Below are positions 4,142-57,304 of a stretch of 64,000 nt of DNA, in pieces. The notes beneath the pieces were generated by a model. It was not told the DNA's origin and made no database searches. It was given only the letters and a program-made list of their open reading frames with translations. Within the stretch, counting starts at the first letter, position 1. The number at the start of each line of letters is the position of its first letter. This stretch comes from a virus (lineage: Duplodnaviria; Caudoviricetes): positions 769-64,768 of the IMG/VR virus record IMGVR_UViG_3300007734_000748. One strand, given 5' to 3'. A program made the position numbers and the translations under genes.

Positions 4142-4368
4142 TGAAGGGTTACACACTGCAAACTGTACGCCTTAACAGAGACGCGGATGGTAAGTGTGTC
4201 GGGGTGCGTCTTGGGCGGTACTGCATCGCCAAAAACATCCCGGTGACCGACGTGATGGCGTTCTTCGATGTGTCTAAACAGACCGTGTACAACTGGTTTG
4301 TTGGGATACATCCACCGAACAAAACACACGAAAAAACCATTCGCGACTTTTTAGATCGCGTTCTATAA
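4141..4368 (+). CDS. Cro/CI-like HTH regulator
   Basis: VTDVMAFFDVSKQTVYNWFVG HTH. Confidence 0.8.
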   Translation: MKGYTLQTVRLNRDADGKCVGVRLGRYCIAKNIPVTDVMAFFDVSKQTVYNWFVGIHPPNKTHEKTIRDFLDRVL

Positions 4369-7536: not shown

Positions 7537-7570
7537 AACCCCCGCTAGGGCAACTTAGCGGGGTTTTTTT
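7537..7570. terminator. rho-independent terminator at the convergence of the two arms
   Basis: AACCCCCGCTAG-GGCAAC-TTAGCGGGGTTTTTTT between convergent genes. Confidence 0.8.
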
Positions 7571-10500: not shown

Positions 10501-13500
10501 TCGCTGTCGGTGGTGTTTGGCTTGATGTTGAAGATACGCCCAACGGCATTGGTAAAGGTGTTCCACAACGAGAACGGCGCTGCTTGGTAACGAATCTCCC
10601 GCAGCAATGCTTGGAACTCTGGGTTGGTCATAGCCTCGGACACAAATTCGTGCAGGTCTTGCAGCCCGTACAAATTGTCTTCGCTTAGCCCTTCCAACGA
10701 CAATATGCCCTTGGCGTGGTTGTACAGCTTGACCAGTTGGTCATAGCCTTGCCGCTGGATGTCGTTGACCTTATTTAGTTTACCTGTTGTGGGCGTAGCC
10801 GCCATCATGTCGATCAGGCGGGCAAGGGCAGCGTGGAGCGACTCGTGCAACAGGGTATGGTTGTTGAACTGAGAGGCTTTGTTGCCGCCTTCACGCAGAA
10901 TAACTTCATCAGTGGCCGGGTCGTACATGCCCGCCCAAGTGAATTGCTTGTCCAGCAGGGCCGTGGTTTCACCCAGAATTTCACGCTGAGCTTCGTTCTT
11001 AAACTCATCGTTCAGTCTATCTACGGCGGACAGGATACCGCCCAACTTCTTGGAGTTGAGGTCCGCAAGAATTGATTTCTTGGTTGCCGCATCCATAGAG
11101 GACACTTCAATCATGTCGGAGAGTGCCCGGACCTTGGCGTCCAATGCCTCTTTGTCGGCTTTTTTGCCAGACAGCGGTTCAAGGTGATCGCTGCCCACCA
11201 CCCTGGATTTGGCGGTAAGTCCAGAGTCCAGCAAGCGGTTTGCAAGCACAGCGTAGTACGGGTTGTTCTTGGCATCAGCCATTAGCTTCAGCGCACCCTT
11301 GAGGTCACCCGTCTTTAGCAAGCTTGCGATGGCTGGGTTGACCTGTGACAACATTTGCACCACAGGCAAGCCTTTGGCGATGGGCTTAAGTTTTGGTGCT
11401 CTTGGAACCTTGACCCCGGTGGTTGTTTCTGCTTTCTGGAGTTTGGCTTGAACCCGCTCCTTACGCAGCACCTCATACTTGGTGATGGCCTCGCTGAACT
11501 TCTTGGCTTCGTTGATGTCGCTTTGAAAATCAGCCACCATGCTCTTGAAAATGGCCTGCGTCTCGCTGTCAAGATTCTTGTTAACCCAATTACGGAAATC
11601 AACGGCGTACTTACCGCCTTCGCCCTCATACAGCGTGTTGGCAGCAACAGATGCTTTCACATCCTTGTCCACTACGGGCAGCTTGTTAAGCTGCTCTGGC
11701 GACAGATCAGGTGCAAGTGCTTCAATCTCGGCTATGGTTTTGCCGTAACGCTGTGATAGGTATGACTGCCACTGCGCCAAATCAGACGCCGCATCGGCCA
11801 GCACCTTACCAAAAGAATTCCTGCGTGGGTTGTCGATATAGTTTTTCGCCGCCAACAAACCCGCTGACAACTCGTCTTTGTAATTACGCAAGTTGTACAG
11901 CATCTTCAAAATTGCTGGCAAGCTGCGGTCGGTGATGAGGTACTCTTCCTCTACGCTGGCAGTGCTGGGTTTACGAGGCTTGCCTTCGCCAGTTTTACCG
12001 TGCACTTTGGTGACCATGCGGGCGATGGTCACTTTGGAAATATATATACCTTTTTGTATACGGTCTTTGACCTTGCCCGCCGCACCTTCTTTTGTGCCGG
12101 GCAGGATGTCAATGTACTTCTTAATCTGTTCGTTGAACTCCTCCATCCCACGGCGGGTCGTGAGGTCAGGGAGGTTATGGTTTGTGAAGAACCGTGACTG
12201 CGCCGCTGCGCTCATGTTAGGCAAATCATTCAGTGCTTGCTCAAAGTCAGGCATGCCACCCATACGGCTGGCAATGTACTTCAGCATAGCCCGGACACCC
12301 CGGCTATATTCCTGGCCTTTGGCAACAATGTCGTAACTCAGCATGCGCTTGAGCGCCACGCCTTTTAGAGATTCGTGTTTGCTTTGTTCGCTTTCTGTAC
12401 CAGACTGGGGCAGGATAGCGTCAAAGAAAGCCGTAAGAAGCTTGCCCTCTTTGGTCTTGGCCACGTTGGCAATACCCAGATCATTTTCAGCTTTGTCGGC
12501 CAGCGTTTGTTCAACATCTTCGGTTGTTTCGGCGCTTACCCTTTCTGCTTCTTTTTCGGGCTGAGCTTCTTTCTTTTCTGCAACCTGACGGCGTTTGTAT
12601 ACGTCTGCGCGTTCAAACTTTACGTCCTCGCCGTAGTCAGTGACGAGTTGATCTCGCATGCTCTTGGAGACCTCCGTGCCCGCCTCAACCGGACTCATGC
12701 CCGGCTCGGTGATCACGTACGAAATTGCTTTACCAACAGGTGCTTTTTCTTCACGCTCGGCTTTGGGCGCAGTTTCTTTGGGTTCCGGTTTTGCGGTAAA
12801 CACGTCTTCAAACGCTTCACCCGACGTAACTTCGGTGGGTTCTTTCTTTGGTTCTGCACCAAACAAACTCCTTTGCATACCCTTGCGTTCACCGGACAGC
12901 AATGCAATCGCTTGGTCGATCGTAGTGGTCTGGCGGTCAACGTGTTGCCGGGCTAATGTTTCAACATTGGCAACGGCTTCACCAGCAGGTAGTCCAGGGG
13001 CTTTTTGTGAAAGTGCCCAAGTCTTGTCGTATACACCAGCAGCCAAATCCTTCAGGAGTTTGGCCTTGCTTCTCTCAAGCACGCGAACAGCTTCTTCGCG
13101 GTCCTGGCCCGCCAACGCCAACGCAGACTCCACCCGACGCTCAACACTGGGCCCCTTGGTAAACATTTGCGTTTGCATTCCGCGACGCTGGCCAACTTGT
13201 TTGAGAGCGCCACGCCCGTCAAACTTGGGGTCTACCAAGTTATCTACCAACGTGGGGTCAAGGTTACCCAACAGTGGGCTGTTGATCTGCACAAGCGATT
13301 GAAGTATCTTTTCAGCGGCCTCGCGTTTTTCTTTGACGATAAAGTCAAATCTATTTTCAGGCTTGCTCAACGCGTCAATCCGCGCCCGCAGGTCGTCGTA
13401 CTGTTCTTTGAACTCACCAAACGATTCGGCAGGAGCCAACTCTGCGACTGGAGCAGCAGGAGGCGGGGTTGGCCTTGCTGGTTTTGCTGTTGGTTTATTT

Positions 13501-14957
13501 AACTCAACAATCCCAACTTGTTCTTGTGGCGCTTCATCTCGCTGGCCGGTAGTACCTTCTATATATGCCTTAGATTGCGTGAAGGGTTTTTGGCCTTGAA
13601 CATCAGCGCCTGTCTCCACATCCTCAAACAGGCCCGGAGGCTCCGCAGACGGGGGTGGAGTAAGGTCGGGTTCACCATATTTGGCAGACACAGTTTGGCC
13701 AGAAGCAGGCACACGGGTTGCATACTTCTCGACTTCGGTTGGGACTAATGCACTGGGTTGCTGTTCTTCTCTTGCAGCAGCGCCTGCAACATCCGCTCCA
13801 GCAGGAACCACTCCAGGGGGTCCAGCTTCTCCAGGTCCTGCGGAGGGTGGCACTGCACTGGTTGCGCCAGCCAGTGGAGCGCCTTCTCCACCTGTTGTAC
13901 TGATAGGTTGTCCAACATCGGTTGCTTCCTTCTCCAGTGTGTCTTTGACCCAAGCTGGGACTTCGGTACGCAATAACGCCTGACCCTCTGGCGTGCGCCT
14001 AGCTTGGAATGTTTGGGCCGCACCACTATATGCGCCCATTGGCCCACCAAGCAAGAGGGCTCCACCTGCGGCTTCCAGATATTCTTTGGCGGCTTCGGGG
14101 TCTTTAAATGGATCGAGCGCCAGACCCGCCTGCCACCGCTCCAACACTTGTTGGGTTACCTCTTGCGGCACTTCAAATGCGATACCTGATGCGGTGCCTT
14201 TGGCCACAGCTTTCTTGTATGCGTTGGGTTTGGTCGCGGCTTCAACAATTTCAAGCGCGGCTTTTTCAGCGGCAGCTTTGCCCTCTATACCAACCAACTG
14301 GCCCAGGGGTTTGAAGAACTTAAACCCAAAAATGTCCAACGCGGTTTGACCTGCTGCCGCAGTCGTTGCAGTCAGCCGGTTGATGTCTTCATAAACTTGG
14401 CCTTTTTTGGCCTGCTCTTCTTTTTGACGGGAGATGTTGTCTGCGATGTACGAGCCAAGTGCAGTCAACCCGTATGCCGCAGTGCCAATTGCTGCGGCGG
14501 GCAGAGCGGCAGGAGCCGCCAATGCTGCACCAGCACCAGCAACCATGGCAGGGGCCATTGACCCCAAGGACGACCCAGCAACTTCTTTAAATTTATCAAC
14601 CGTTTTACCCAGCGCAGTGCCATACGCACCTTGTTTGAACGCGTCGCCAATCTCGCTGAATTCGGTCTGTTTATAAACATCACCAGCTTCTTTTTTGGCC
14701 CGTGCCAGTTCATCGGTAGCAGCTTTTTGATCCCCCAGCCCGGTGAACAACTGCGCTGTTGGTAGGGCTGTGGTAACGCGTTCTTTTAGCGCAGAACCAA
14801 AAGACCCGAAGAACCCGCCTGACTCAGTGGGTTCGGGCTTCGCGGGTTCTCCAACTGGAGTACCACCAAACTGAGAAGCAAGCGCAGCGTAGTCTACGCC
14901 TTGCTTAGATGGAGCGGGGACACCCCCAAACTCGGCTGCAAGTTTGGCGTAGTCCAT
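7569..14957 (-). CDS. large polyvalent internal virion/ejection protein (MPTase-like zincin + PLxRFG-like domain)
   Basis: 2462 aa, last gene of the virion operon; LLHESLH...HEFVSEAMTNPEFQ metallopeptidase; GPYFPLMRHGRFW PLxRFG-like motif. Confidence 0.8.
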   Translation of the reverse strand: MDYAKLAAEFGGVPAPSKQGVDYAALASQFGGTPVGEPAKPEPTESGGFFGSFGSALKERVTTALPTAQLFTGLGDQKAATDELARAKKEAGDVYKQTEFSEIGDAFKQGAYGTALGKTVDKFKEVAGSSLGSMAPAMVAGAGAALAAPAALPAAAIGTAAYGLTALGSYIADNISRQKEEQAKKGQVYEDINRLTATTAAAGQTALDIFGFKFFKPLGQLVGIEGKAAAEKAALEIVEAATKPNAYKKAVAKGTASGIAFEVPQEVTQQVLERWQAGLALDPFKDPEAAKEYLEAAGGALLLGGPMGAYSGAAQTFQARRTPEGQALLRTEVPAWVKDTLEKEATDVGQPISTTGGEGAPLAGATSAVPPSAGPGEAGPPGVVPAGADVAGAAAREEQQPSALVPTEVEKYATRVPASGQTVSAKYGEPDLTPPPSAEPPGLFEDVETGADVQGQKPFTQSKAYIEGTTGQRDEAPQEQVGIVELNKPTAKPARPTPPPAAPVAELAPAESFGEFKEQYDDLRARIDALSKPENRFDFIVKEKREAAEKILQSLVQINSPLLGNLDPTLVDNLVDPKFDGRGALKQVGQRRGMQTQMFTKGPSVERRVESALALAGQDREEAVRVLERSKAKLLKDLAAGVYDKTWALSQKAPGLPAGEAVANVETLARQHVDRQTTTIDQAIALLSGERKGMQRSLFGAEPKKEPTEVTSGEAFEDVFTAKPEPKETAPKAEREEKAPVGKAISYVITEPGMSPVEAGTEVSKSMRDQLVTDYGEDVKFERADVYKRRQVAEKKEAQPEKEAERVSAETTEDVEQTLADKAENDLGIANVAKTKEGKLLTAFFDAILPQSGTESEQSKHESLKGVALKRMLSYDIVAKGQEYSRGVRAMLKYIASRMGGMPDFEQALNDLPNMSAAAQSRFFTNHNLPDLTTRRGMEEFNEQIKKYIDILPGTKEGAAGKVKDRIQKGIYISKVTIARMVTKVHGKTGEGKPRKPSTASVEEEYLITDRSLPAILKMLYNLRNYKDELSAGLLAAKNYIDNPRRNSFGKVLADAASDLAQWQSYLSQRYGKTIAEIEALAPDLSPEQLNKLPVVDKDVKASVAANTLYEGEGGKYAVDFRNWVNKNLDSETQAIFKSMVADFQSDINEAKKFSEAITKYEVLRKERVQAKLQKAETTTGVKVPRAPKLKPIAKGLPVVQMLSQVNPAIASLLKTGDLKGALKLMADAKNNPYYAVLANRLLDSGLTAKSRVVGSDHLEPLSGKKADKEALDAKVRALSDMIEVSSMDAATKKSILADLNSKKLGGILSAVDRLNDEFKNEAQREILGETTALLDKQFTWAGMYDPATDEVILREGGNKASQFNNHTLLHESLHAALARLIDMMAATPTTGKLNKVNDIQRQGYDQLVKLYNHAKGILSLEGLSEDNLYGLQDLHEFVSEAMTNPEFQALLREIRYQAAPFSLWNTFTNAVGRIFNIKPNTTDSDVLIEVMKATDAMMAGPMALEGLAPATERKGLTVKGAAKPVPRSLPNTPTSLSNLMSARSWAEVKGSFPILYNSAKASSRPVALGMLTMRQIADLVRNRIPQVNNFIQVAEDFLARKNNILRESGDISKRWERMQSADPNMSRLLAKVMHGATISEVDPDKATTDQRNRNVQLLQDWNQLSPVAKAIYRQVRDFYERRYEEYKGLMNQRVTQMRQLGVSEQTILEIRNEFEKNKRKGPYFPLMRHGRFWYQIGKGKTREYYMFESAGQKEIHMAQRIAQNPELESTVKEGSEFAQQMDLHARESNFLRESFAAIDSANITGANSAAEKQNLKDSIYQTFLANQPERSFRNQFMHRNNVAGYSEDALRNFASSSFHMAYQMARFEHSPNMFSQIEAARIQLKDRIDVNKGYDVKLSRENTELSDYVTEMDRRLKLMLNPTDIGIIPSLLSNIGFIWYLTAPASAIVNILGGMTIGLPTLVGQYVKANPKASYTEATLAALGQMKTAAGQIIATGFNIERGERLRDNRVMFPTLDRTKSMSKTERAAYDRFVADGLIDITAVYDQSGLAASPTESYTGLRHRGMEMLTSLFHNAERFNREVMAMSAFRLAMEKRKDYADKDLAFAESIAEAKDTTNRSMFDYSSPNKPRYFQHPVARVVLQFKQFPQQMTFFLAHNMVNMLKGATPADRREARARFVGTMGMAGIFSGVTGLWGFSTVASIVNAVVNGLADDDEPPFEFELEFANWAVETFGKNVGTMLTRGIGNAAGIDLASRLKLDDMWLRDSRKNQDEVESLQSLLVDLLGPTVGLAVNAAEAVKLYNEGHADRALETIAPAFIKQPIVAARYANEGVNTLRGDPLMEEVGPFYLFMQSLGLRSAELAEIQFYNITIKGQEQAILKERQNLLNLYALAFMANDADTVEKAYDKIDKFNSKNPTVFIPADSMSKSITERLKKSSQTDHGLYIDPKLEGVLRRHTYLD
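13745..13918 (-). CDS. putative nested out-of-frame gene (57 aa) inside the giant protein gene
   Basis: GGAGAAGGAAG RBS then ATG; product MLDNLSVQQVEKALHWL...LEWFLLERMLQALLQEK looks like an amphipathic helical protein while the host frame is a low-complexity linker. Confidence 0.55.
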   Translation of the reverse strand: MLDNLSVQQVEKALHWLAQPVQCHPPQDLEKLDPLEWFLLERMLQALLQEKNSNPVH

Positions 14958-47264: not shown

Positions 47265-47612
47265 GGGGGGGGTCTTCTGCAAAAAATATATGGGGGTGGG
47301 GGGTCGGAAAAATAAAAAGTGACGGGGGGTGTTTTTAATTTTTAAACACCCACTGAGCAAAACACTGTGTACGTTCGCGTGACGCACCGTGTTCTCCAAT
47401 TTGGGGGGTGCCACCACGGTGGGTCCGGCGCGGGCGTCGTTTTTTGGAGTAGCGTATCCGGAGCGCGGTCGTTTTGTTTTGAAGTAGCGTAGTCGGAGAA
47501 GATCGCGCCAGATTTTTCCATCCTGTGCTTTGGAATACGCTGTGGAGATTCAACCCTTTTCTGGTGGTTCCTTTATAGTTTAACCATGGACAGCGAGATT
47601 GGCTGGACATCG

Positions 47613-47641
47613 GGAATTGTCGACAGCGTGTCGATTATTCC
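47613..47641. repeat. 29-bp palindrome copy 1
   Basis: GGA ATTG TCGACA GCG TGTCGA TTAT TCC. Confidence 0.9.
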
Positions 47642-47682
47642 TGTGCCGATATTGGCAAGCCTCTTAACTTGGAGATTAAATC

Positions 47683-48330
47683 ATGGCTCAGCAAAACTCT
47701 GTTGCGATCGCATCGGCCATCGCAGTGCAAACCATTGGCGGCGTCCCTGCTGTCGAATTGCAACAAACCATCTTCGCCATTGGTGAAGAAACCTTGGCGG
47801 CTGAAACCGCGATGGCTCGCGGCAAAGAAGCGCTCGATGTGCTCGATTCCAATTTGCATGACATTGTGAAGGGTTTGCCCTACACTGAATTTATGCTGGT
47901 GCGCGACTTCCACAAAGCGGGCGCGATTGACAAGGGCAAATCGGATGACGCGGCGCAGAAAATCTGGGAGCGTCAAATCAATCGGATCGGCTCGACATTT
48001 GACTTCGTCAAGCCCAAGTCAGAGTCGAAAGACGCTGAGCGCAAAGCGGCGGCAAAGGCGGCTGAGATCGCCAAGCTGGCTGAGTTCGGCGATGGCGAGT
48101 TGGATGACCTCAAAGCTGGCTTACTGGCAAAGGGTGACGCCAAGTCGTTGCGCGAAGCGTTGAAACTCAACAAAGAAATCGAGCGGCGCAATGCTACGGA
48201 ATTGGAAGCGGCGAAAGCTCAGCGCAAAGCGATCAGCGACAAACTGATTGCCCGCGTCAAAGAGTTGACCAAAGCGGGCACGGAAGATGCTGATGCGCTG
48301 TTGATCTCGGCTCTGCAAATGCTGAGCTAA
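47683..48330 (+). CDS. hypothetical early protein
   Basis: GGAG RBS, 215 aa Ala/Lys-rich helical protein with its own terminator. Confidence 0.8.
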   Translation: MAQQNSVAIASAIAVQTIGGVPAVELQQTIFAIGEETLAAETAMARGKEALDVLDSNLHDIVKGLPYTEFMLVRDFHKAGAIDKGKSDDAAQKIWERQINRIGSTFDFVKPKSESKDAERKAAAKAAEIAKLAEFGDGELDDLKAGLLAKGDAKSLREALKLNKEIERRNATELEAAKAQRKAISDKLIARVKELTKAGTEDADALLISALQMLS

Positions 48331-48334
48331 ATCT

Positions 48335-48358
48335 TGGGGGGCTTCGGCCCCCTTTTTT
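48335..48358 (+). terminator. rho-independent terminator
   Basis: GGGGGG CTTCGG CCCCC TTTTTT. Confidence 0.85.
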
Positions 48359-48429
48359 CTTCGCCCGCGTTGCCCGCTGATCTTCGATCGGCTGGCGGCG
48401 CGGGCTTTGAAGCCAGTTCCTGTCCGAGC

Positions 48430-48559
48430 AACGGGGTAGCCTATGCTTGCTTATAGGTATCTATCAACTTTGCTGCCCAAAGAACAAGCTGGGCGGGCGG
48501 TGTGAACGGGGTAGCCACGCTCTTCTTTGTATACCAGTTCTCTTGGAAACGGGGTAGCC
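48430..48559 (+). repeat. three direct repeats AACGGGGTAGCC
   Basis: Copies at 48430, 48505 and 48548. Confidence 0.8.
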
Positions 48560-48560
48560 T

Positions 48561-48589
48561 GGAATAGTCGACAAAGTGTCGGTTTCTCC
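48561..48589. repeat. 29-bp palindrome copy 2
   Basis: GGA ATAG TCGACA AAG TGTCGG TTTC TCC. Confidence 0.9.
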
Positions 48590-48925
48590 GGGGCGTCAAG
48601 ACCGCCTCGACCGCTCGGCAAGTGCCCGGCGGGTCTAGTTTTCAAAACGGGCGATGCTAACCTGACACAAAAGCCAGAAACGGGCGACGCTTTCCCACGC
48701 AAATCCCGCATAGTTTGTTGCCATAAAACCACGGCGATACTCTATAAAACCACGGGCGATGCACCCGCCATTTCCCCCACTCCACCTCGCAACGCCTTCA
48801 ATAAGCCTGCAGGAAGCCTCTTCTGGAGGGACACATATTGCACAGGTCTCTTACATTAAAAATCCAGCCCGATTTTCGCAAGTCCTTGTTTTTGTTCTCT
48901 TTATTTATTTATAATAATAATATAA

Positions 48926-49072
48926 TAATAGATGTTATGTGTTGTCGCTATTTTCTGTACCAGTGAGAGGTTCCGTGATTTCCCCCCCGCCAAGCCCGAC
49001 CACCTCGCCACCCCAACTTTTGACCCCCCTCCTCTAGGTACAAAAAAGAGCGACAACACATAACATCTATTA
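48926..49072. repeat. long inverted repeat next to an AT-rich tract (candidate origin)
   Basis: TAATAGATGTTATGTGTTGTCGCT (48926-48949) is the exact reverse complement of 49049-49072; imperfect pairing extends inward. Confidence 0.85.
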
Positions 49073-49113
49073 CATTATCCTCAAAAACGGGGTAAACACT
49101 AGGGTTTTGGGGC

Positions 49114-49143
49114 TTGATTAAATAAGAGATGTGTGCATATAAT
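49114..49143 (+). promoter_or_regulatory. sigma70-type promoter
   Basis: TTGATT-N18-TATAAT. Confidence 0.55.
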
Positions 49144-49174
49144 GTCCCTCCACAGCACTTTTTAAAGGACCCCT

Positions 49175-49885
49175 ATGTCACGCACGCCCAAGTACAAGAA
49201 CGCAGACGACCTCTTCGCCAACTGCAGGCAGGTCAACGACTGCCTCATCTGGCCCCAAACCTCCAGCACCCTCTCCACCCCGACCTTCTCACCCATGTCC
49301 ACGCTGGCGATGAAGTTCAACACCACCAGCATCGTCAGGGTCACCTTCACCCTATGTCGACACATCCCGTCTCGCGGTCGCTTGGTCCGGTGTTGCGATC
49401 AACCCTACTGCATCAACCCTTACCACTATGTTGAAGCCACGGCGATTCGCAAGAAGCGCCTCAAGAACGGACAGCCCAATGCTTTGCTTCCTGATCAGGA
49501 AGGTGTCCGCGATCTGATCGCACCATCGGAAGAGGAACTGCGGGCGATGCGGCCAAAGGACCCCGACTTACTTATCATGCTTGCGAACTCTGCCCTCACA
49601 GCGGGCTACGATGGCCGGGGCATCCTCAACGGGCGCGGCGTGTTCACCGCCCTCAAAGCACCCAAGTACGCCGACCCCAACAAACCGTTGCTTGTCATAC
49701 GCCGCCGCGAAGAGCCGCCAAAGAAAGCCTCGACATTCGTTGACCCAATCACGCCCGAGATGGAGACAGAAAAAGAAGGCTTCCTTGGCCCGTACTTCGA
49801 CATGCTCATGGCCAAGAAGAAAGAAAAGGAGCGAATTGCGGCCCAGGGTTATCCCGACCCCATAGATGGCCGAAATGACCGTTGA
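49175..49885 (+). CDS. protein with degenerate HNH (His-Cys box-like) domain
   Basis: DCLIW...CCDQPYCINPYHY. Confidence 0.7.
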   Translation: MSRTPKYKNADDLFANCRQVNDCLIWPQTSSTLSTPTFSPMSTLAMKFNTTSIVRVTFTLCRHIPSRGRLVRCCDQPYCINPYHYVEATAIRKKRLKNGQPNALLPDQEGVRDLIAPSEEELRAMRPKDPDLLIMLANSALTAGYDGRGILNGRGVFTALKAPKYADPNKPLLVIRRREEPPKKASTFVDPITPEMETEKEGFLGPYFDMLMAKKKEKERIAAQGYPDPIDGRNDR

Positions 49886-49917
49886 GCGGAATCAGGTGCC
49901 AAAACGCGGAGAGGGAC

Positions 49918-49946
49918 TTGACAAAGTCTAATTAGTGTGTTAGAAT
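49918..49946 (+). promoter_or_regulatory. sigma70-type promoter with AAGTCTAA element
   Basis: TTGACA-N17-TAGAAT. Confidence 0.8.
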
Positions 49947-49999
49947 GTACTTTGTACATTTGGGATAGCGCACGGATGTACAGGGGTTTTTCTGCCCTC

Positions 50000-50028
50000 G
50001 GAGTTTTCGACATGGTGTCGATTTCTCC
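50000..50028. repeat. 29-bp palindrome copy 3
   Basis: GGA GTTT TCGACA TGG TGTCGA TTTC TCC. Confidence 0.9.
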
Positions 50029-50055
50029 AGTCCCTCAACCTTTATTGGAGTTTGT

Positions 50056-50142
50056 ATGAATCTCTCAGACCGCGTAACACGCGTTGTGTTTCTGCTGGCA
50101 CTTGTGGTGCTGGCCCTTGATCTCATGGTGTGGCGGGCATGA
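50056..50142 (+). CDS. 28-aa single-TM peptide
   Basis: GGAG RBS; MNLSDRVTRVVFLLALVVLALDLMVWRA; ATGA overlap with the next gene. Confidence 0.55.
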   Translation: MNLSDRVTRVVFLLALVVLALDLMVWRA

Positions 50143-50414
50143 CTCCCCATACTAGAGAATCAGTTGACGCTGTGGCAGCACGCGTCGACTACGACTGGCG
50201 CATGTGTCCCCGTTGCGGGGACGATGTGCATGTAGAGCGTTGGAACCTCGGTTTCAAACTCTGCTTATTCTGTGGCCAAGAGGCCGCAGAGGCTGATCGC
50301 GCATCCTGGTGCGTAGTGCAAACATACGGCAAGGGGCCGTATATGCTGGTGACCCAAGCGTCTGCACCCCAGACGCTGAAAGACACCAATCAGAAAAACA
50401 CCCGTTCGGAGTAA
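50139..50414 (+). CDS. C4 zinc-finger protein (DksA/TraR finger-like)
   Basis: CPRCGDDV..ER......CLFC. Confidence 0.7.
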   Translation: MTPHTRESVDAVAARVDYDWRMCPRCGDDVHVERWNLGFKLCLFCGQEAAEADRASWCVVQTYGKGPYMLVTQASAPQTLKDTNQKNTRSE

Positions 50415-50436
50415 TCGACACGGTGTCGATTTCTCC
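50408..50436. repeat. 29-bp palindrome copy 4
   Basis: GGA GTAA TCGACA CGG TGTCGA TTTC TCC. Confidence 0.9.
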
Positions 50437-50477
50437 TGTATCTCACTATATAAACCTTCACTTTCAAGGAAACGAAA

Positions 50478-51554
50478 ATGTCAGACATTAACTTCAACCG
50501 CCGCGTGGACCATGACGAGGCCGTGGCCATTCTCCTCAATTCGGGTGGCAACTCCGTGCACCTGCGGGGCGAGCCGGGCGTGGGCAAGACGGCCATTCAG
50601 GATGTGCTGGTCGCCAAGACCGGATACCACAAGGTCTACATTGACGGGCCTAACACCGATGTGGGTCAAGCGGGCATGCCCATCCCCAACCACGACAAGC
50701 GCATCTTGGACTTCTACCCAGCGGGCAGTTTCAAACTGCACCTGAACGAGCCGTGCGTGATCATGATTGACGAGTGGACCAAGACCGACGACTATGTCCG
50801 CAATACCCTGCACCCGTTGTTGCACGAGCGTCGCCTTGGCGACTACAACCTGCACCCCGACACCATCGTGTTCACCACGGGCAACATGGACGGCGATGGC
50901 GTGGGTGACTCGGTCAAGAAGCACACCGTCAACCGCCAGACATGGCTCACATACATGAAACCGACTGCGGCCAAGTGGTTGGTGTGGGCGGGCAACGCGG
51001 ACATTGCGCCAGAGGTTATGGCCTGGGTCAAGGAGTACGAGCACTGCATGCACAGCTACATGGACGGCGGGCAGAAAGACAACCCGTATATCTTCAACCC
51101 AACCAATGCGGCGCAGACCAGCTTCGTGTCGCCGCGCTCGCTGGAGAAGGCGTCACGCTGGGTGAAGGTGCGCAATCAGTTGACAGAGAACAGCTTGATT
51201 GCCTGTCTTGACGGCACACTGGGTATCGCAGGCAGTCGTGACTTGCAGGCGTACATCAGCTTGTCCGATCAACTCCCGACCCGTGAGGCGATTGAGAACT
51301 CGCCCGAATCGGTGGTCATGCCCACCAGCCCCGCCGCCTTGTGCATCTTGGCGTTCAAGGGCGTGGCCGTTGTGACCCGTGACACCTACGCGGCGTGGAT
51401 GAGGTTCGTTCGGCGCATGCCCAAAGAGACCCAAGCTGTATTCATTAACAGCTTACTGGAGGTGCGTGAGAAGAAGCAGTGGGCCATGTCTCACCCCTCG
51501 TTCGTCACCTGGGCCCGCGAGAACCAGTACATGTTTGCTGGCCTCAAGGGATAA
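50478..51554 (+). CDS. MoxR-like AAA+ ATPase
   Basis: GEPGVGKT Walker A, IMIDE Walker B, TTGN sensor, NR arginine finger and SPRS. Confidence 0.88.
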   Translation: MSDINFNRRVDHDEAVAILLNSGGNSVHLRGEPGVGKTAIQDVLVAKTGYHKVYIDGPNTDVGQAGMPIPNHDKRILDFYPAGSFKLHLNEPCVIMIDEWTKTDDYVRNTLHPLLHERRLGDYNLHPDTIVFTTGNMDGDGVGDSVKKHTVNRQTWLTYMKPTAAKWLVWAGNADIAPEVMAWVKEYEHCMHSYMDGGQKDNPYIFNPTNAAQTSFVSPRSLEKASRWVKVRNQLTENSLIACLDGTLGIAGSRDLQAYISLSDQLPTREAIENSPESVVMPTSPAALCILAFKGVAVVTRDTYAAWMRFVRRMPKETQAVFINSLLEVREKKQWAMSHPSFVTWARENQYMFAGLKG

Positions 51555-51577
51555 ATCGACAACTTGTCTAAAACTCC
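51549..51577. repeat. 29-bp palindrome copy 5
   Basis: GGA TAAA TCGACA ACT TGTCTA AAAC TCC. Confidence 0.8.
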
Positions 51578-51587
51578 GGAGAAACAA

Positions 51588-51866
51588 ATGACTAAAGTAA
51601 AGAAAGCATCCTTCAACGAAGTGTATGCAAGCTGGAAGATTCTGCGTAGCGGGTTTGACCGCATGGAGAAGGATATTCTCATCCTCATGCGTCACGCCGA
51701 TGCGACACCCGAGCAACTGATGGAGGCTCATGCTCTGTATCAGGATTCGTACAAACGCATATGCGCCATGCAGGACAAGCTGATTGAGAGATCAGCGGGC
51801 TCGTTCATGCTGGACAGGTACTTCAACACGCCTGTGTCACTGGCTGAACCGAGGGAGACTGTATGA
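51588..51866 (+). CDS. hypothetical protein
   Basis: GGAG RBS; helical. Confidence 0.7.
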   Translation: MTKVKKASFNEVYASWKILRSGFDRMEKDILILMRHADATPEQLMEAHALYQDSYKRICAMQDKLIERSAGSFMLDRYFNTPVSLAEPRETV

Positions 51867-52072
51867 CTGACACCGAAACACTACTGGTGCTGGGGAACTG
51901 CGTGATGGTGGGGCTCTATGCCTACGAGCGGGCGAGGCTGTCCTTCTTCAAGCGAGCCCTTATCGCGTTAATGGAAGCGGTTCAAGAAGCTGCCGACAAA
52001 AAAGGTTCGTTCACCCGAACGACCGATGGAAGTATTCAATTCAAGGAGATCAAAAATGCTGGTAATAAGTAA
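51863..52072 (+). CDS. hypothetical membrane protein
   Basis: GAGGGAG RBS; N-terminal hydrophobic stretch. Confidence 0.65.
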   Translation: MTDTETLLVLGNCVMVGLYAYERARLSFFKRALIALMEAVQEAADKKGSFTRTTDGSIQFKEIKNAGNK

Positions 52073-53345
52073 GCCGACGGCCAAGCCCAAGCTGGCCGCA
52101 GAGAAGCGCATTGAGGTGGTGCATGTGTCCCTCATGCAGGACAAGCGGTTCGCCCTGTTCGCTGGCCTGTTCATGGTGGGCAAGACGAGCGTGGATGACA
52201 CGACCCCCACTGCCAGGACCAACGGGCGTGACGCTACCTACGGGCGGGCGTTCGTGGACTCGCTGACTGACAAGGAGTTAGCCTTTCTTGTCATGCACGA
52301 GAACATGCACAAGTGTTACCGCCATCTCACTACATGGCGTAACCTGTACGACGACAACCATTCGTTGGCCAACGTCGCATGTGATCATGTCATCAACCTC
52401 CAGCTTGAGGCGATGGACCCCAACGAGACAATGCTCGTGCATCCCCGTGACAAGGTGACGGGCAAGCGGATGGGTGCGCACGACCCACGCTTCACGGACA
52501 TGGATGCGCGGCAGGTCTACGACATTCTCAAGGAAGAGTGCAAGGGCGGGCGTAAAGGGCGCGGCGGTGGCGGCGAGCCTTCCGATGGGCAGGGCGAGCC
52601 AGGGGATGGGAATGATCGACAAGGTGTCGATGGTTCCGGGCTTGACGAGCACGATTGGGAAGGTGCACAGGACGGGCTTAGCGAGGGCGAGAAGAAACAG
52701 CTTGAGCGTGACATCGACCAAGCCCTGCGCCAAGGCGGCATCTACGCGGGCAAGATGGGTGGACAAATGTCCCGTGAGATCGGTGAGTTGCTCACACCCA
52801 GGGTTGACTGGCGTGAGGTGGTGCGGGTGTTTGTCAAGACACACTTGCGCGATCGTCAGGCTCCGTCATGGCGCAAGGCGCACCGCAACTATCTGTGGCA
52901 GGACATCATCCTACCCAGCGTGATAGGTAAGCGGGTCAAGCATCTTGTGCTGGCGATGGATACTTCTGGCTCTGTGGTAGGCGATCTGCTCACCATGTTC
53001 CTGAGCGAGTTCAATAAGGTCGTAACGGATACGAATCCCGAGCGGGTTGATGTACTGTACTGGGACACCGATGTCGCAGGGCATGAGACCTACAAGGGTG
53101 CAGACAAGAAGTCCATCGTGCATCAGACCAACCCCAAGGGTGGGGGTGGCACGGACCCTGACTGCGTACCTGTGTTCATGCAAGAGCATGAGCTAACGCC
53201 TGATGTGCTTGTGATTCTCTCTGATGGGTACATGAGCAGTAATCCGGCGAAGTGGGCGGGCGTGACATGCCCTGTCCTGTGGTGCATTATTGGTAGCAAA
53301 AGCTTTACCCCTCCAGTGGGTCAGCTTGTCAACATTAAGGATTGA
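52056..53345 (+). CDS. DUF2201-family metallopeptidase + vWA protein
   Basis: TARTNG, HENMH (HExxH), NVACD.VIN, DTSGS (MIDAS), GGGGTD and LSDG. Confidence 0.88.
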   Translation: MLVISKPTAKPKLAAEKRIEVVHVSLMQDKRFALFAGLFMVGKTSVDDTTPTARTNGRDATYGRAFVDSLTDKELAFLVMHENMHKCYRHLTTWRNLYDDNHSLANVACDHVINLQLEAMDPNETMLVHPRDKVTGKRMGAHDPRFTDMDARQVYDILKEECKGGRKGRGGGGEPSDGQGEPGDGNDRQGVDGSGLDEHDWEGAQDGLSEGEKKQLERDIDQALRQGGIYAGKMGGQMSREIGELLTPRVDWREVVRVFVKTHLRDRQAPSWRKAHRNYLWQDIILPSVIGKRVKHLVLAMDTSGSVVGDLLTMFLSEFNKVVTDTNPERVDVLYWDTDVAGHETYKGADKKSIVHQTNPKGGGGTDPDCVPVFMQEHELTPDVLVILSDGYMSSNPAKWAGVTCPVLWCIIGSKSFTPPVGQLVNIKD

Positions 53346-53347
53346 TC

Positions 53348-53599
53348 ATGGACGATGACAAAGTAATACTGAAGATCAGTGGCAACTTGTTTTATCTGGA
53401 CATGACCGAGGCTCTCGCGGTTGCGAAGGTCTTGTGTAGCGTGTCGCGCATCAAGGAGATGCGGATAGCCGAGGATTGGGGGAGTGTGATGAGCGGCCCT
53501 GAACTTGATTCGGTGAGTATCCAGCCCATGACCGCGCACTATTGGTTGCAGTTGGAGACCAACCGCAAGATCAAGGAAGAAAGAGAGGCGAAAAAATGA
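53348..53599 (+). CDS. hypothetical protein
   Basis: AAGGA RBS; follows the vWA gene. Confidence 0.65.
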   Translation: MDDDKVILKISGNLFYLDMTEALAVAKVLCSVSRIKEMRIAEDWGSVMSGPELDSVSIQPMTAHYWLQLETNRKIKEEREAKK

Positions 53600-53751
53600 C
53601 ACCGGGTAACTACAACATCAACCTCAACAGGGAGACCTTTGAGTTGTTGCAGAAGGTGCGCGATGACCTTGGCGTGAAGCTGGGGTTTGAGCCTACCTAC
53701 GGGCAGGTGGTACGCCATCTGATTAGTATGTACAACACAGCAGTGGGGTAA
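53596..53751 (+). CDS. small putative ribbon-helix-helix protein
   Basis: YNINLNRETFELL...TYGQVVRHLI; GAGG RBS. Confidence 0.6.
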   Translation: MTPGNYNINLNRETFELLQKVRDDLGVKLGFEPTYGQVVRHLISMYNTAVG

Positions 53752-53947
53752 ATCGTCATGCCTTTAGTTGTTTTAGGTAAAGGGATAGTTGACTATCAAC
53801 GACCCAACGAACAGGAACTTCCCAAGATTGGGAGTCTTGTCTGCATGAATGAAATCGTGCAGTCTCAGCATCGGCGTGCGCAGATAGCTCAGCTATCTAT
53901 CAGCATGTCTCTTATTCAAGAAGTGTATCTTCACAAGGAGAATCAAA

Positions 53948-55021
53948 ATGGCTTACGGGTATAGCAGTTACAACACAGCGGGCGTGCCGCACCTCAAGAG
54001 TTTCTCGCAAGCGAAGCACAGGTACGAGCAGACCAAGCCCATCAAAGGGCATCCACAAAGCGTTAGGCCATTCGGGGTACGCCGTTACCACAAGATGGCG
54101 AGCATCTCGATGCCCGACGCAGACACGGTCAACCTGGAGTACTACGGGAAAACTCTCGTGCAGTGGCGGTCGGACAACACCTACACGGTCTATCGTCCGG
54201 TGCATGCCAGCGCGTATGTACCAGACAACACCAGCCAGTATGTGCCCGAGGGGGCATTCGGTTGGAAGCATGGCGAAATATATGTGACGCTGAAGGGTGG
54301 CAAAGAGTACTTCTTCCCAGATGGAGGCAAGCTGGAGTTTCAAGTGACGGGCAACCACCACCTGTTGCTCAACAAGCCTGTGGCCTACGCTACCCGCACG
54401 AACAGGAATGTGGCGATGAAGATCATGGCTAAGTACCAGCCCTTCATGGATTGGTTGCAGGTCGTGGCGGGCGTGAAGCGTCATGTCGACATGGATGAAG
54501 CGCAGGAAGCGTGCGATCGACTTCGGCGGCTTGCCGATGTTCCCTCTGAGGAATCCTTTGACAAAGCAATACGAAACACTGAACCACGCTCTACCTCTGA
54601 AGCATGGACGCTGTATGGCGAGCGGCGTAACGCTTGCTACCTCCCGTTCCGGGGGGCCAATTCGCGCTATTCCTACACCCACTTCCACCGCCCAAGCTGT
54701 GAGTTGATTGACTCGTGGCTTACGGACGAGAACGCGGAGAATTGGGTGCAAGCTATGTATGTCATCGCACGGCATCAGGGTCAGCACTTGCACTTTAGGG
54801 ATGTAGGTGGCGCGTACAGGCACACGAAAACTATTCTGCCCGTTAACAAGGCAGTGGAGTTTCTCAGGGCGTTGACTTCATTCCTGCACAGGGACGAGGT
54901 GTTCACCCGTGAGCGTCTACCTGACGGGCAGTTACCCACCAGGACCAACCTCAACTTCTTTCACGAGATTCACATTCGCAACCTCGGAACAATCGACAAA
55001 GTGTCGAAGATTCCTAACTAA
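53948..55021 (+). CDS. hypothetical protein (357 aa)
   Basis: AAGGAG RBS; long ORF with phage-like codon usage. Confidence 0.8.
   Translation: MAYGYSSYNTAGVPHLKSFSQAKHRYEQTKPIKGHPQSVRPFGVRRYHKMASISMPDADTVNLEYYGKTLVQWRSDNTYTVYRPVHASAYVPDNTSQYVPEGAFGWKHGEIYVTLKGGKEYFFPDGGKLEFQVTGNHHLLLNKPVAYATRTNRNVAMKIMAKYQPFMDWLQVVAGVKRHVDMDEAQEACDRLRRLADVPSEESFDKAIRNTEPRSTSEAWTLYGERRNACYLPFRGANSRYSYTHFHRPSCELIDSWLTDENAENWVQAMYVIARHQGQHLHFRDVGGAYRHTKTILPVNKAVEFLRALTSFLHRDEVFTRERLPDGQLPTRTNLNFFHEIHIRNLGTIDKVSKIPN
54986..55014. repeat. 29-bp palindrome copy 6
   Basis: GGA ACAA TCGACA AAG TGTCGA AGAT TCC. Confidence 0.9.
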
Positions 55022-55033
55022 CTGGAGAACACC

Positions 55034-55918
55034 ATGACACAGAATACGATCATTCACACCGCCCCGGCGGTATCCCTTGCATCCATGGCCATGCTGGTCG
55101 AACTGCGTATCAGCACATGGACAGCGCGTAAGCGTGACAACGAGACCACGATGGAGGTCAACACTTCCAAGGAAGCTGACCAAGACTCTGGCTCTGTCTA
55201 CAAGTATCTGATGGCGGGCAGTGACCACCTCAAGAAGATTGAGAAGTACGCGGCCAAGTGCCGTGCGTGGAACGGGACGCAGACCCTGCCTTGGATGAAG
55301 GGTATCGGGCTGTTACCGATGGAGAATTTCTTTCACTATCGGGGTCAGCTCGGTACGATGGAATCCAATTTCTACGCATTGGTTGACGCTTTTATCGCGG
55401 AGTACCCCAAACTCAAGAACGATCAGGCGTTCAGGCTGGGCAAGTACTACCGCGCTGAAGAGTTTCCCGATGTGGAGACCTTGCCGCGCAGGTTCAAGTT
55501 TGAGTACAACTTTCTCCCTGTTCCAGAGAAGGGGGATTTCCGCATCCGCTGCGAAGAAAAAGTCCGCGCTGATCTGGCTGAGCAGTACGAGAAGATGTAC
55601 AACGCCAAGCTGGCTGACGCTATGCGTGACCCATGGGAGAGACTGCATGCACTGTTGACCAAGATGAGCACCACTCTGACCGACAGGGATGATGGCGAGC
55701 GGAAGATATTCCGCGACTCAATCGTGACCAATGCGGCAGGTATGTGTGACCTGCTGACGCGGCTCAATGTGACGAAGGACCCAGAGCTTGAGAAGGCTCG
55801 CCGTATGCTGGAGCAAGCGATAGCGGGCTTTGACCCGAAGGACCTGCGTGGCAGTGACGGCGCTCGTGTCGAGTTGAAGTCCAGCGTTGATGACATCCTC
55901 AGCAAATTTAACTGGTAA
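55034..55918 (+). CDS. DUF3150-like protein
   Basis: LVEL.IS.WTARK.D, TLPW, F...YP and EFPD....RF pattern. Confidence 0.65.
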   Translation: MTQNTIIHTAPAVSLASMAMLVELRISTWTARKRDNETTMEVNTSKEADQDSGSVYKYLMAGSDHLKKIEKYAAKCRAWNGTQTLPWMKGIGLLPMENFFHYRGQLGTMESNFYALVDAFIAEYPKLKNDQAFRLGKYYRAEEFPDVETLPRRFKFEYNFLPVPEKGDFRIRCEEKVRADLAEQYEKMYNAKLADAMRDPWERLHALLTKMSTTLTDRDDGERKIFRDSIVTNAAGMCDLLTRLNVTKDPELEKARRMLEQAIAGFDPKDLRGSDGARVELKSSVDDILSKFNW

Positions 55919-55925
55919 GGAAAAA

Positions 55926-56819
55926 ATGATGCAACTAGCAAACGTAATTATCAAAGACGGGTATGTCATGGACCCCATGCTGGCAGAGTTGGTAACTCCG
56001 CTGGCCTTGGCCATGCCATCCTATACATTCACCACGCGGACCATGGACGACACACAGTTTGTGCACTACTCGTACGCCGTCACCTTAAAGGCTCGTTCGG
56101 TGCAAGCACCAGAGGGCAAGAGGTTTATGCGTAAACTGTTTGTGTTCTGTGAAGACGAGAACATGGGGGAGTTGTTGGTGGACTCTAGGTACAGCCGTAG
56201 TAGATCGGGCTCTGATTGGGTGTGGGAGATCAGGTGCTGGCGCATAGAAAACGAGCGAGGCTCGCGTAACACCACCAAGACTACCAAACTTGATGTAGCC
56301 AAGCGTGTGGTCAAGAAATACTTCTTGCCCAAAGGTTTGGACGAGGTGCTGGCAAATTCTGAAACTGTCCTGTACGACTTCGATCGGGCTTTAGGTCGTC
56401 TGGCGCATGACATATCACGCAGTAATCTGCTTAAGAATCTTTCGGACTTGCAGGAGTATGTCTATCATCAGTTGATGGGGCAGGAGATACCTATCCAGCT
56501 TAAACAGCGGGTGGAAACTAAGATGACTTCGGACAAGTACCATAAGGCAATGGGTGAATTTAATCTGGCCGCGTCTATGGATGTCAGGAAAGACAGGCTA
56601 CTTGTCATACGGCACAAGGGCGGGTACTTGTACAAGGAACCTGTGGTTCGGGGGTCGGCCCTGACCGAAATGGTTACTATGTTCCAGTCGTTTGAAGAAC
56701 TACCTAGTCTGTGGCAAGACAGGCTGGCGGTGCTACAACTGATGGAAGATGAAGAGGTCGTGCGTGATGTAGGCTACAGGCACAACGACACGCACTTCGT
56801 GATACTAACTAACCCATAA
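55926..56819 (+). CDS. hypothetical protein
   Basis: AAGGA RBS; C-terminal LP...RLAVL...DVGYR. Confidence 0.75.
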   Translation: MMQLANVIIKDGYVMDPMLAELVTPLALAMPSYTFTTRTMDDTQFVHYSYAVTLKARSVQAPEGKRFMRKLFVFCEDENMGELLVDSRYSRSRSGSDWVWEIRCWRIENERGSRNTTKTTKLDVAKRVVKKYFLPKGLDEVLANSETVLYDFDRALGRLAHDISRSNLLKNLSDLQEYVYHQLMGQEIPIQLKQRVETKMTSDKYHKAMGEFNLAASMDVRKDRLLVIRHKGGYLYKEPVVRGSALTEMVTMFQSFEELPSLWQDRLAVLQLMEDEEVVRDVGYRHNDTHFVILTNP

Positions 56820-56832
56820 CCTGCTACTCTTT

Positions 56833-56857
56833 GACCCGCTTCGGCGGGTCTTTTTTT
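56833..56857 (+). terminator. rho-independent terminator
   Basis: GACCCGC TTCG GCGGGTC TTTTTTT. Confidence 0.9.
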
Positions 56858-56861
56858 GCCC

Positions 56862-56890
56862 GGAATTATCGACAACGTGTCGAAGATTCC
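56862..56890. repeat. 29-bp palindrome copy 7
   Basis: GGA ATTA TCGACA ACG TGTCGA AGAT TCC. Confidence 0.9.
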
Positions 56891-56936
56891 CAAACCCTAT
56901 TAGTGTTTCTCCCTATAAAATATTTCTGTTGGGCAC

Positions 56937-56965
56937 TTGACATAGTCCAACAAGCCCCGTATATT
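56937..56965 (+). promoter_or_regulatory. sigma70-type promoter, likely giving a leaderless transcript
   Basis: TTGACA TAGTCCAA...-N17-TATATT; ATG follows 6 nt after the -10. Confidence 0.7.
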
Positions 56966-56971
56966 CTGGGC

Positions 56972-57304
56972 ATGGCATTAACTCCAGAACGAAAAGTAAA
57001 AGACCTAGTGGTGGCCCAGCTTAAAGCTCGTGGCGCGTACTACTTCTTCCCCGCAAGCAACGGCTTCGGGCGCATGGGCATACCCGACATCATCGTGTGT
57101 CACCATGGTAGCTTCATCGCCATAGAATGTAAAGCGGGTAAGGGAAAAACCACACGGCTCCAAGACCGTGAATTGGATAACATAAATAAAGCGGGCGGGG
57201 TGGCCATAGTCATCAACGAGACCAACATCGCATTGGTCACCCGTATTCTCACTTCAAAGGAAACAAACCATGCTGGAAAAGCTACTGCGCCTCCCACTCC
57301 CTGA
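56972..57304 (+). CDS. VRR-NUC nuclease (Holliday junction resolvase-like)
   Basis: TPE..VK, GIPDI, IECKAG and Q..E...I...GG. Confidence 0.88.
   Translation: MALTPERKVKDLVVAQLKARGAYYFFPASNGFGRMGIPDIIVCHHGSFIAIECKAGKGKTTRLQDRELDNINKAGGVAIVINETNIALVTRILTSKETNHAGKATAPPTP

Follow-up and report, generated by a model that had tools for sequence, protein, structure and literature searches.

The window analysed here is a 64,000-nt stretch, bases 769 to 64768 of the viral record IMGVR_UViG_3300007734_000748 (64,768 bp, classed complete), from a tailed phage of the Caudoviricetes. The early part of its non-structural genes contains eight copies of a 29-nt palindrome, GGA-N4-TCGACA-N3-TGTCGA-N4-TCC, and comparisons among related phages show that this element is a real and strongly selected signal of the whole phage family. 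Our preferred reading, to which we give a probability of only about 0.4, is that the element works as a hairpin in the sense-strand RNA and is a post-transcriptional cis signal of the early operon. The operon would be transcribed by the host RNA polymerase; the phages are a family of uncultured freshwater phages. The hairpin would have a lower stem of 4 bp, an A/U-rich internal loop of 3x3 nt, an upper stem of 5-6 bp and a triloop. Its copies are found in the first early leader, at nearly all gene junctions, within the DUF2201 gene and directly past the operon terminator. Each hairpin would be bound by a sequence-specific factor, probably encoded by the phage, that co-evolves with the motif. 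At the copies followed by a U-tract this factor may set whether RNA polymerase stops or reads through, and at the copies on gene borders it may steer the cutting or protection of the transcript by RNases.

Copies of the element in the window and in related phages

The exact pattern matches the window at six positions (47613, 50000, 50408, 52609, 54986 and 56862); 0.00 matches were expected in shuffled sequences and none of 100 shuffles reached six. The copies at 48561 (TGTCGG) and 51549 (TGTCTA) are each one base off the pattern, which brings the total to eight, and allowing up to three mismatches adds none (0.01 expected). The initial annotation of this DNA had listed seven copies; all seven sites are real, two of them being those with one mismatch, but the copy at 52609 had been overlooked. 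It had noticed no copy in the virion operon, and this extends to the whole 64,768-bp record, which has no ninth copy at up to two mismatches. All eight copies are inside 47.6-56.9 kb, the first ~9 kb of the rightward non-structural block. As had been described, five copies end shortly before a start codon (gaps of 41, 27, 41, 10 and 19 nt to the ATGs), three (50408, 51549 and 54986) overlap the 3' ends of genes, and the copy at 56862 is between an intrinsic terminator and a sigma70-like promoter (Table 1). Folded as RNA, seven of the eight copies have energies of -10 to -17 kcal/mol, with z from -2.9 to -5.6.

In IMG/VR the exact pattern was found at 50 loci, many of which hold 2-6 copies, and more than 40 related contigs carry the motif. 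We use L numbers for related IMG/VR or phage loci and call the motif sequence of the window type I. The loci are syntenic with the window, and their early proteins have 30-98% amino acid identity (tblastn). With the loci oriented by homology, 162 instances at up to two mismatches, 142 of them unique, sort into about ten slots, A to J (Table 1); the window is without slots B and H. Slot A is kept in 21 distinct related loci, 38-122 nt 5' of the homologous gene. Slot C of the relatives is 535-690 nt 5' of the 49175 homologue and between conserved flanks, and the slot J order of terminator, motif and promoter also occurs in 14 type I loci and in six loci of other motif types. In 14 lineage representatives slot G carries the motif type of its own lineage, in codon phase 0 or 1 and with differing peptides, in a Gly/Asp/Glu-rich linker directly 5' of a conserved LDEHDW motif. 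Since this slot is kept in two codon phases with different peptides, selection acts on the nucleotides.

Host genomes do not contain the element as a repeat. The exact pattern has eight single matches in 596 Gb of prokaryote genomes (185,579 species), while our own estimate for chance is ~9, and a repeat of the type formed by repetitive extragenic palindromes (REP) and their RAYT transposases, and likewise a host operator or a CRISPR repeat, was ruled out because no multi-copy host element was found. The analysis bears out the earlier suggestion that the early AAA/DUF2201/DUF3150 block has its own set of sites, not described before. Related phages keep the set, and a search of the literature, supplementary material excluded, found no description of the motif. 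CsrA sites, CRISPR-repeat mimics (Racr), parS centromeres, primase recognition sites and restriction sites were also considered; none would fit the copy distribution, and none had its partner gene here.

The motif is replaced as a whole between lineages. A search by ATPase alignment gave 36 loci, and 18 of these are without the type I motif and have other 29-nt palindromes in the same slots, such as type II (GAAC-W3-NCGACA-N3-TGTCGN-W3-GTTC), type III (GAAC-W3-TCGAAN-N3-NTTCGA-W3-GTTC) and type V (GGA-N4-CCCTKN-N3-NMAGGG-N4-TCC). The numbers of copies in complete genomes are 9 (type V), 8 (type II) and 9 (type I), all within ~10 kb with none elsewhere, and reversed control patterns had no match in those three genomes. 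What the types have in common is the 29-nt layout, with an outer stem of 4 bp, an inner stem of 5-6 bp that closes a 3-nt loop and, between the two stems, 3x3 unpaired positions rich in A/T. When pairs were counted in 98 copies from 13 sources, both stems were found to pair with both sides changing between lineages, the three positions between the stems were unpaired in 41-61 of the 98 copies, and the paired cells overall amounted to 78.6%, against 68.5% in shuffles. Between lineages all copies of a genome switch sequence together and the N positions stay free. From this joint switching of the conserved blocks with free N positions we infer a co-evolving, sequence-specific trans factor and not gene conversion. 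The lineages known so far have at least four sequence alleles of the one architecture.

Table 1. The element, its slots and associated features in the window
Feature	Coordinates	Strand	Description
Leader of 47683 gene	47586..47674	+	Four predicted hairpins in a row (single-sequence folds): HP1, 47586-47610; HP2, the motif; HP3, 47644-47657; HP4, 47661-47674, pairs Shine-Dalgarno sequence
Slot A copy	47613..47641	+	5' of 47683 gene; exact; 5' untranslated region of first early gene (47683-48330); minimum free energy (MFE) -16.3 kcal/mol
Slot B			Directly 3' of 47683 gene
Intrinsic terminator	48336..48360	+	Canonical; at slot B position, where many relatives have a motif copy with T-rich tail
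Slot C copy	48561..48589	+	Noncoding region 5' of 49175; one mismatch, T.G wobble; within 845-bp noncoding origin-like region
Sigma70-like promoter	49918..49946	+	TTGACA-17-TAGAAT, extended -10; predicted to drive transcript with copies D to I
Slot D copy	50000..50028	+	3' of 49175; exact; ~50 nt 3' of 49918 promoter; MFE -13.4 kcal/mol
Slot E copy	50408..50436	+	5' of ATPase gene (41 nt 5' of AAA ATPase gene); exact; covers TAA stop of zinc-ribbon open reading frame (ORF)
Slot F copy	51549..51577	+	On ATPase stop codon; one mismatch; GGA-TAA-A contains AAA ATPase stop; weak hairpin, MFE -4.7 kcal/mol
Slot G copy	52609..52637	+	Within DUF2201 gene (52026-53345); exact; Gly/Asp/Glu-rich linker
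Slot H			5' of 53758 gene
Slot I copy	54986..55014	+	5' of DUF3150-like gene (19 nt); exact; 3' end of ORF 53948-55021
Slot J module	56833..56965	+	3' of 55887 gene; intrinsic terminator 56833-56850 + T run; motif 56862-56890; polA-operon promoter 56937-56965

RNA hairpin or double-stranded DNA site

The order of features along the region (promoter, leader hairpin, gene and terminator or U-tract hairpin; promoter, hairpin and gene junctions; terminator, hairpin and promoter) would fit a control of elongation, termination or processing. The slot A copy is directly between two hairpins of varying sequence, and a hairpin that pairs the Shine-Dalgarno sequence comes next. By our own reading of the predicted folds this four-hairpin arrangement is present in 21 of 22 related leaders. 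HP1 and HP3 vary in sequence among relatives yet still fold, and in the other motif types that were checked hairpins likewise flank the leader copy. Single-sequence folds were used because MAFFT misaligned the variable flanking hairpins and RNAalifold on the slot A leaders recovered the motif hairpin only. A candidate promoter for this leader (TTCAAC...TATAGT, ~47550-47580) was identified from sequence and conservation and was not called by the promoter scan. The 49918 promoter is kept in relatives and is followed by a 5' hairpin with a varying stem (GTAC/GTAC or CTAC/GTAG). T-rich tracts follow the slot B and slot E copies (means of 5.1 and 4.8 T in the best 8-nt window, compared with 0.8-3.9 at the other main slots), and at these two slots they are on the sense strand only. 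Of the slot E copies in the family, 16 of them distinct, half have such a tract next to them, and at the position of the relatives' slot B copy the window has a canonical terminator.

The copies themselves also vary in a manner expected of a polar hairpin. Of 127 unique type I copies, 11 have a central loop of 2 or 4 nt, at slots A, B, E and G among others, and some of these variants are common to diverged phages; three more were found against the type II pattern, one of which is also counted under type I. The spacing from outer to inner block is shifted in 0 of 131 copies (Fisher p = 0.0003 against the loop shifts). Deviations in type I are more frequent in the right arm (40) than in the left (15; raw p = 0.001), and one type II lineage has nGAC in the left arm with the right arm an unchanged GTTC. 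Raw counts at the three internal pairs of type I give G.T 83 and A.C 32, and the tally of stem mismatches gives T8.G22 9 vs C8.A22 1 and G1.T29 6 vs A1.C29 2. The initial annotation had preferred a dimeric site on double-stranded DNA to an RNA stem. Loop-length variation, unequal arms, U-tracts and flanking RNA hairpins point the other way, and we do not uphold that argument, although the double-stranded site is a live rival.

Several observations weigh against the RNA hairpin. Its stems are invariant in sequence (most fixed stem columns near 2 bits, range 1.45-2.0) while the loop (0.10-0.22 bits) and the internal loop are variable, and an invariant stem with a variable loop is the usual sign of base read-out on double-stranded DNA and unusual for the recognition of an RNA hairpin by a protein. 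In types II and III the 3-nt spacers consist of A and T alone and show selection neither for pairing nor against it. Slot J is 3-8 nt past the T run of a strong terminator in every lineage examined and would thus reach RNA by read-through only, and slots E, F, G and I overlap translated sequence. The excess of G.T falls to 38 vs 24 (p = 0.10) when each slot, position and type is counted once, and synonymous sites likewise have T > A. Compensated stem changes within type I are few and uncompensated single changes many, and covariation between lineages cannot tell a hairpin from a symmetric site on double-stranded DNA. The four spacer positions on each side, initially described as variable, are not free: in 142 unique family copies position 4 is mostly A, 5 T, 7 A or G, 23 T and 26 T. 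The proposal that these spacers be checked for covariation gave a mixed answer. Positions 4 and 26 form 95 Watson-Crick pairs in 132 copies, with 67.5 expected, as pairing would have it, but part of this is a lineage-wide preference of the half-site; in L065, 7 of 8 copies have G at position 26 and only 4 have C at position 4. Finally, neither an RNA-binding domain nor a likely binder turned up in the proteins scanned or in two predicted models.

The double-stranded alternative, which we regard as possible though somewhat unlikely, is an operator bound by a phage DNA-binding protein as one dimer or as two. The protein would recognise two blocks per half, an outer GGA or GAAC and an inner CGACA, with all four facing the same side of the helix, and would block or modulate the host RNA polymerase at many places along the early operon, for example in early shut-off; mycobacteriophage stoperators and the KorB operators of plasmid RK2 would be comparable. 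Invariant blocks, a variable centre, A/T-rich spacers and symmetric half-site preferences are all in its favor, and so is the C4-G26 variant, a lineage-wide half-site preference more than strict pairing. The same holds for the location of slot J between terminator and promoter, that of slot C in untranslated origin-like DNA, and the similar palindrome of a cultured relative, which recurs about every 1 kb with about half of its copies intragenic. Copies are tolerated within ORFs and on stop codons in the manner of stoperators (for the concept, see PMC9283540). On the other hand, the centre changes by 1 bp at conserved slots while the spacing within each half is fixed, a homodimer does not predict arms that are unequally conserved relative to the direction of transcription, and the T-tracts are one-sided. 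No repressor or integrase was found in the proteins scanned. Two helix-turn-helix (HTH) proteins were considered as binders and rejected: that at 767-985 is absent from 5 of 5 related genomes, and that at 4141-4368 is conserved, yet its recognition helix does not differ between phages whose motif is of type I, II, III or V.

A hairpin or cruciform extruded from supercoiled or single-stranded DNA during replication or recombination, and read by a protein specific for both structure and sequence, is quite improbable. Examples of such elements are the N4 virion-RNA-polymerase promoters, the origins of HUH nucleases and integron attC sites, and a 6-bp stem with a 3-nt loop is the format of the N4 early promoter. 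This explanation would reconcile the hairpin geometry with the invariant stems, which B-form DNA stems permit, and it gains from the AAA ATPase being distantly N4 gp24-like, from the copy in the origin-like region and from the Hjc/VRR-NUC resolvase gene 3' of slot J. However, a virion RNA polymerase, HUH nuclease or tyrosine recombinase was not detected in the proteins scanned, the 2462-aa virion protein matches only LPD39 and DarB-like families, sigma70 promoters are conserved 5' of slots A and D, the loop bases are unconserved, and the copies are limited to 10 kb of the genome. We rejected an N4-type promoter, as the stem and loop fit but the giant virion RNA polymerase was not found and sigma70-like promoters are present, and also an integron attC site, as no integrase domain was found in the proteins scanned and the element has only 29 nt; the folded attC site has 57-141 nt and an adjacent tyrosine recombinase, IntI. 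The idea that the copies are loading or protection sites on the first-injected DNA found no support.

We consider it very unlikely that the copies are only recombination linkers or a self-spreading repeat (similar to promoter-early stem-loop (PeSL) cassettes, REP or miniature inverted-repeat transposable elements), kept for the exchange of gene cassettes with no regulatory role. One clear case favors cassette exchange, which had been named earlier as an alternative. L021:4368-4968 and L022:4156-4756 are ~99% identical up to the slot B motif and ribosome-binding site, and directly past the motif have unrelated ORFs of ~200 nt, with identity returning at the next terminator; by its sequence this difference is a cassette replacement bounded by the motif. 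Since the exchange is exactly at slot B, the repeats also act as recombination joints, in the manner of PeSLs (PMC2839356). In addition, L013, whose lineage has the C4-G26 variant, has an L022-like gene start 3' of slot B, and gene content varies between slots D-E and F-G. Against this, about ten slots are syntenic across deep divergence, one of them inside an essential-looking gene, units copied whole would not be expected to combine conserved blocks with free N positions, neither a transposase nor a RAYT was found, and host genomes are without the motif.

Host RNase sites as in T7, where RNase III would divide the early polycistronic RNA into stable pieces without a binder encoded by the phage, suit copies at the gene borders of one early transcript, directly past stop codons, and RNase III substrates do conserve the stem and vary the apical loop, but we think this equally improbable, since the enzyme usually requires ~20 bp, the ~13 pairs here are broken by the 3x3 loop and not extended (position 0/30 pairs in 36 of 98 copies), whole-stem lineage swaps are needless for a host enzyme, and a cut at slot G would sever the ORF.

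Candidate readers and the surrounding genes

In a more far-reaching reading, these phages might encode a protein that reads the bases of the stem, and not of the loop, of a short hairpin of nucleic acid, is re-loaded at 8-10 hairpins ~1 kb apart and steers host RNA polymerase or RNases gene by gene, protein and hairpin switching specificity together over at least four specificities. We regard this as doubtful; if true, the stem-reading protein and its hairpin would be a new kind of modular, orthogonal hairpin-protein pair. Two early products were modelled. The product of the 47683 gene is fast-evolving (34-76% identity in the family) and has an all-helical AlphaFold2 (AF2) model with a predicted local distance difference test (pLDDT) score of 82; it has no Pfam or PHROG family and no fold match in the PDB (best E 3.7). 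The 49175 product (pLDDT 75) has a weak match to a PHROG 'endonuclease' (E 1e-4), no fold match, no PDB sequence match and no Pfam match in 13 of 13 members, and by our reading is a degenerate zinc domain of the HNH-like kind.

Among the products of the phage are a DNA polymerase of family A, an exonuclease of the PD-(D/E)XK type, a helicase, a DUF927 primase-helicase, terminase and portal, and in the early block an AAA_5 ATPase, a DUF2201 metallopeptidase/VWA protein and a weak match to DUF3150. No RNA polymerase or integrase was found by domain scans of the proteins scanned, no repressor among the same proteins, and no tRNA by a tRNA scan. Neither an Rfam scan of the region nor its comparison with cultured phages by megablast gave a match; the closest phages in culture, the Rhizobium RHph_TM phages and Pseudomonas KPP25, have only ~33% polymerase identity. 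The 2462-aa protein of the virion module (7569-14957, minus strand) has an LPD39 domain and a DarB-like C-terminal region and is a 'polyvalent protein', a kind thought to enter together with the DNA.

Several observations concern the immediate neighbors of the copies. The ORF whose TAA stop is inside copy E (50130-50414) encodes a 94-aa zinc ribbon (CxxC...CxxC) and is present at 36 of 36 ATPase loci (38-93% identity, at least 53% in 35 of the 36); its zinc-finger spacing is, we presume, reminiscent of TraR/DksA-type RNA-polymerase binders, without support from Pfam. Slot C is in the 845-bp noncoding, origin-like stretch at 48330-49175. In this stretch AACGGGGTAGCC and AAACGGGCGATGC are repeated, positions 48900-48935 are AT-rich, and 48932-48951 forms a 20-bp inverted repeat with 49051-49070. 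The slot C surroundings in relatives have shared flanks, CCAGTTCC...AACGG 5' of the motif and GCCAAGTG 3' of it, and this conservation suggests a structured element. The first gene past slot J (56960-57304) encodes the Hjc/VRR-NUC-type resolvase; its ATG is 6 nt past the -10 hexamer, so the mRNA looks leaderless, and relatives keep this arrangement. Rightward promoters at 2806-2819, 49917-49930 and 56936-56949 have a common extended -35 palindrome, CTTGACAWAGTCYA, with four matches in all, including one with one mismatch at 20914 (0.23 expected); the small HTH protein at 4141-4368 could be its reader. Two whole records, G000 and G001, are both classed as carrying direct terminal repeats. In G000 the motif block is 7-16 kb away from one end, but in G001 it is 8-18 kb away from the opposite one and so on another side of the gene map. 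From these coordinates the ends of the records are probably not physical genome ends.

Comparison with known systems

The closest phenomenology is that of the extended start-associated sequences (ESAS) of Cluster K mycobacteriophages, and stoperators are also similar. ESAS (PMC3203893) share with our motif imperfect inverted repeats with a variable centre, several to many copies in the non-structural half only, the same gene families across relatives, a consensus for each sub-lineage and one arm that is better conserved. Their arms have 17 bp with a spacer of 4-13 bp and a 13-bp start-associated motif adjoining (PMC3203893), and according to PMC12699233 their function was still untested in 2025. 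The motif differs in its bipartite 13-nt arms and a centre of 3 (2-4) nt, in having one intragenic and one post-terminator slot, and in its unrelated hosts and phages. In relatives CCTTTATTGGAG is downstream of several copies; a start-associated motif is not enriched in the window, where CCTTTATTGGAG has one exact match and six at up to two mismatches, compared with 4.4 expected.

Stoperators are asymmetric 13-14-bp sites on double-stranded DNA that are used by the monomeric immunity repressor of temperate phages, genome-wide, in one orientation and on start and stop codons. Those of Cluster A mycobacteriophages resemble the motif in being many like sites in operons, often at gene borders, whereas the motif is a 29-nt palindrome with hairpin-type length variation, confined to 10 kb of a phage that appears to be lytic. 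The target of stoperators is RNA polymerase during elongation and not at the promoter (PMC9283540). Lambda nut is similarly alike in its leader hairpin of the first early gene with a terminator 3' of the gene (PMC2724277; PMC3526286). The motif has a nut-like placement in the slot A leader, followed by a terminator or U-tract copy, and again in slot D, ~50 nt past a sigma70 promoter. By this analogy the fast-evolving 47683 product, with its lineage-specific hairpin, is a possible partner. Lambda has two nut sites, and its boxB is recognised through the loop by the arginine-rich N protein, while the motif has 8-10 sites with varying loops and invariant stems, some of them in translated RNA. We rejected identity with nut/boxB, because recognition through conserved loop nucleotides, on a stem free to covary, does not agree with the motif. 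No N-like arginine-rich protein was found.

PeSL cassettes of T4-type phages are units of promoter and terminator in hyperplastic regions (PMC2839356). They share with the motif repeated early-region stem-loops beside small variable ORFs; the motif, for its part, has one clear cassette swap at a copy, and some of its copies have a promoter or U-tract nearby. Most motif copies are without promoter or terminator, and the slots keep their synteny across deep divergence. The RNase III sites of T7 are sequence-related hairpins with an internal loop between early genes that have ~20 or more pairs and use a host enzyme; the motif has 13 pair positions, three of them mostly unpaired, with stem swaps by lineage and one intragenic site.

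Dispersed lineage-specific inverted repeats in the non-structural halves of phages, such as ESAS, have been noted before and are still unexplained, and the motif family is a clean data set for them, with about ten syntenic slots, at least four alleles and an intragenic copy in two frames. Finding the reader would explain the timing of early genes by host RNA polymerase in abundant freshwater phages and could yield orthogonal hairpin-protein pairs. Among cultured distant relatives, KPP25 had no comparable repeat that we could find. Rhizobium phage RHph_TM3_14A (L105; MN988472.1, bases 10900-60889) shares the gene layout and has a dispersed hairpin of its own, (G)TTACC(T)-N4-6-(A)GGTAA(C), with 28 exact TTACC-N5/6-GGTAA copies in 50 kb, ~1 kb apart and mostly in the non-structural block; about half are at gene borders and others are in the metallopeptidase, polA, helicase and primase genes. 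As part of the stem-reading proposal, and with the same doubt, this phage might carry an expanded version of the same principle with at least 28 copies, and the analogous repeat in a cultured phage makes the question one that can be tested at the bench.

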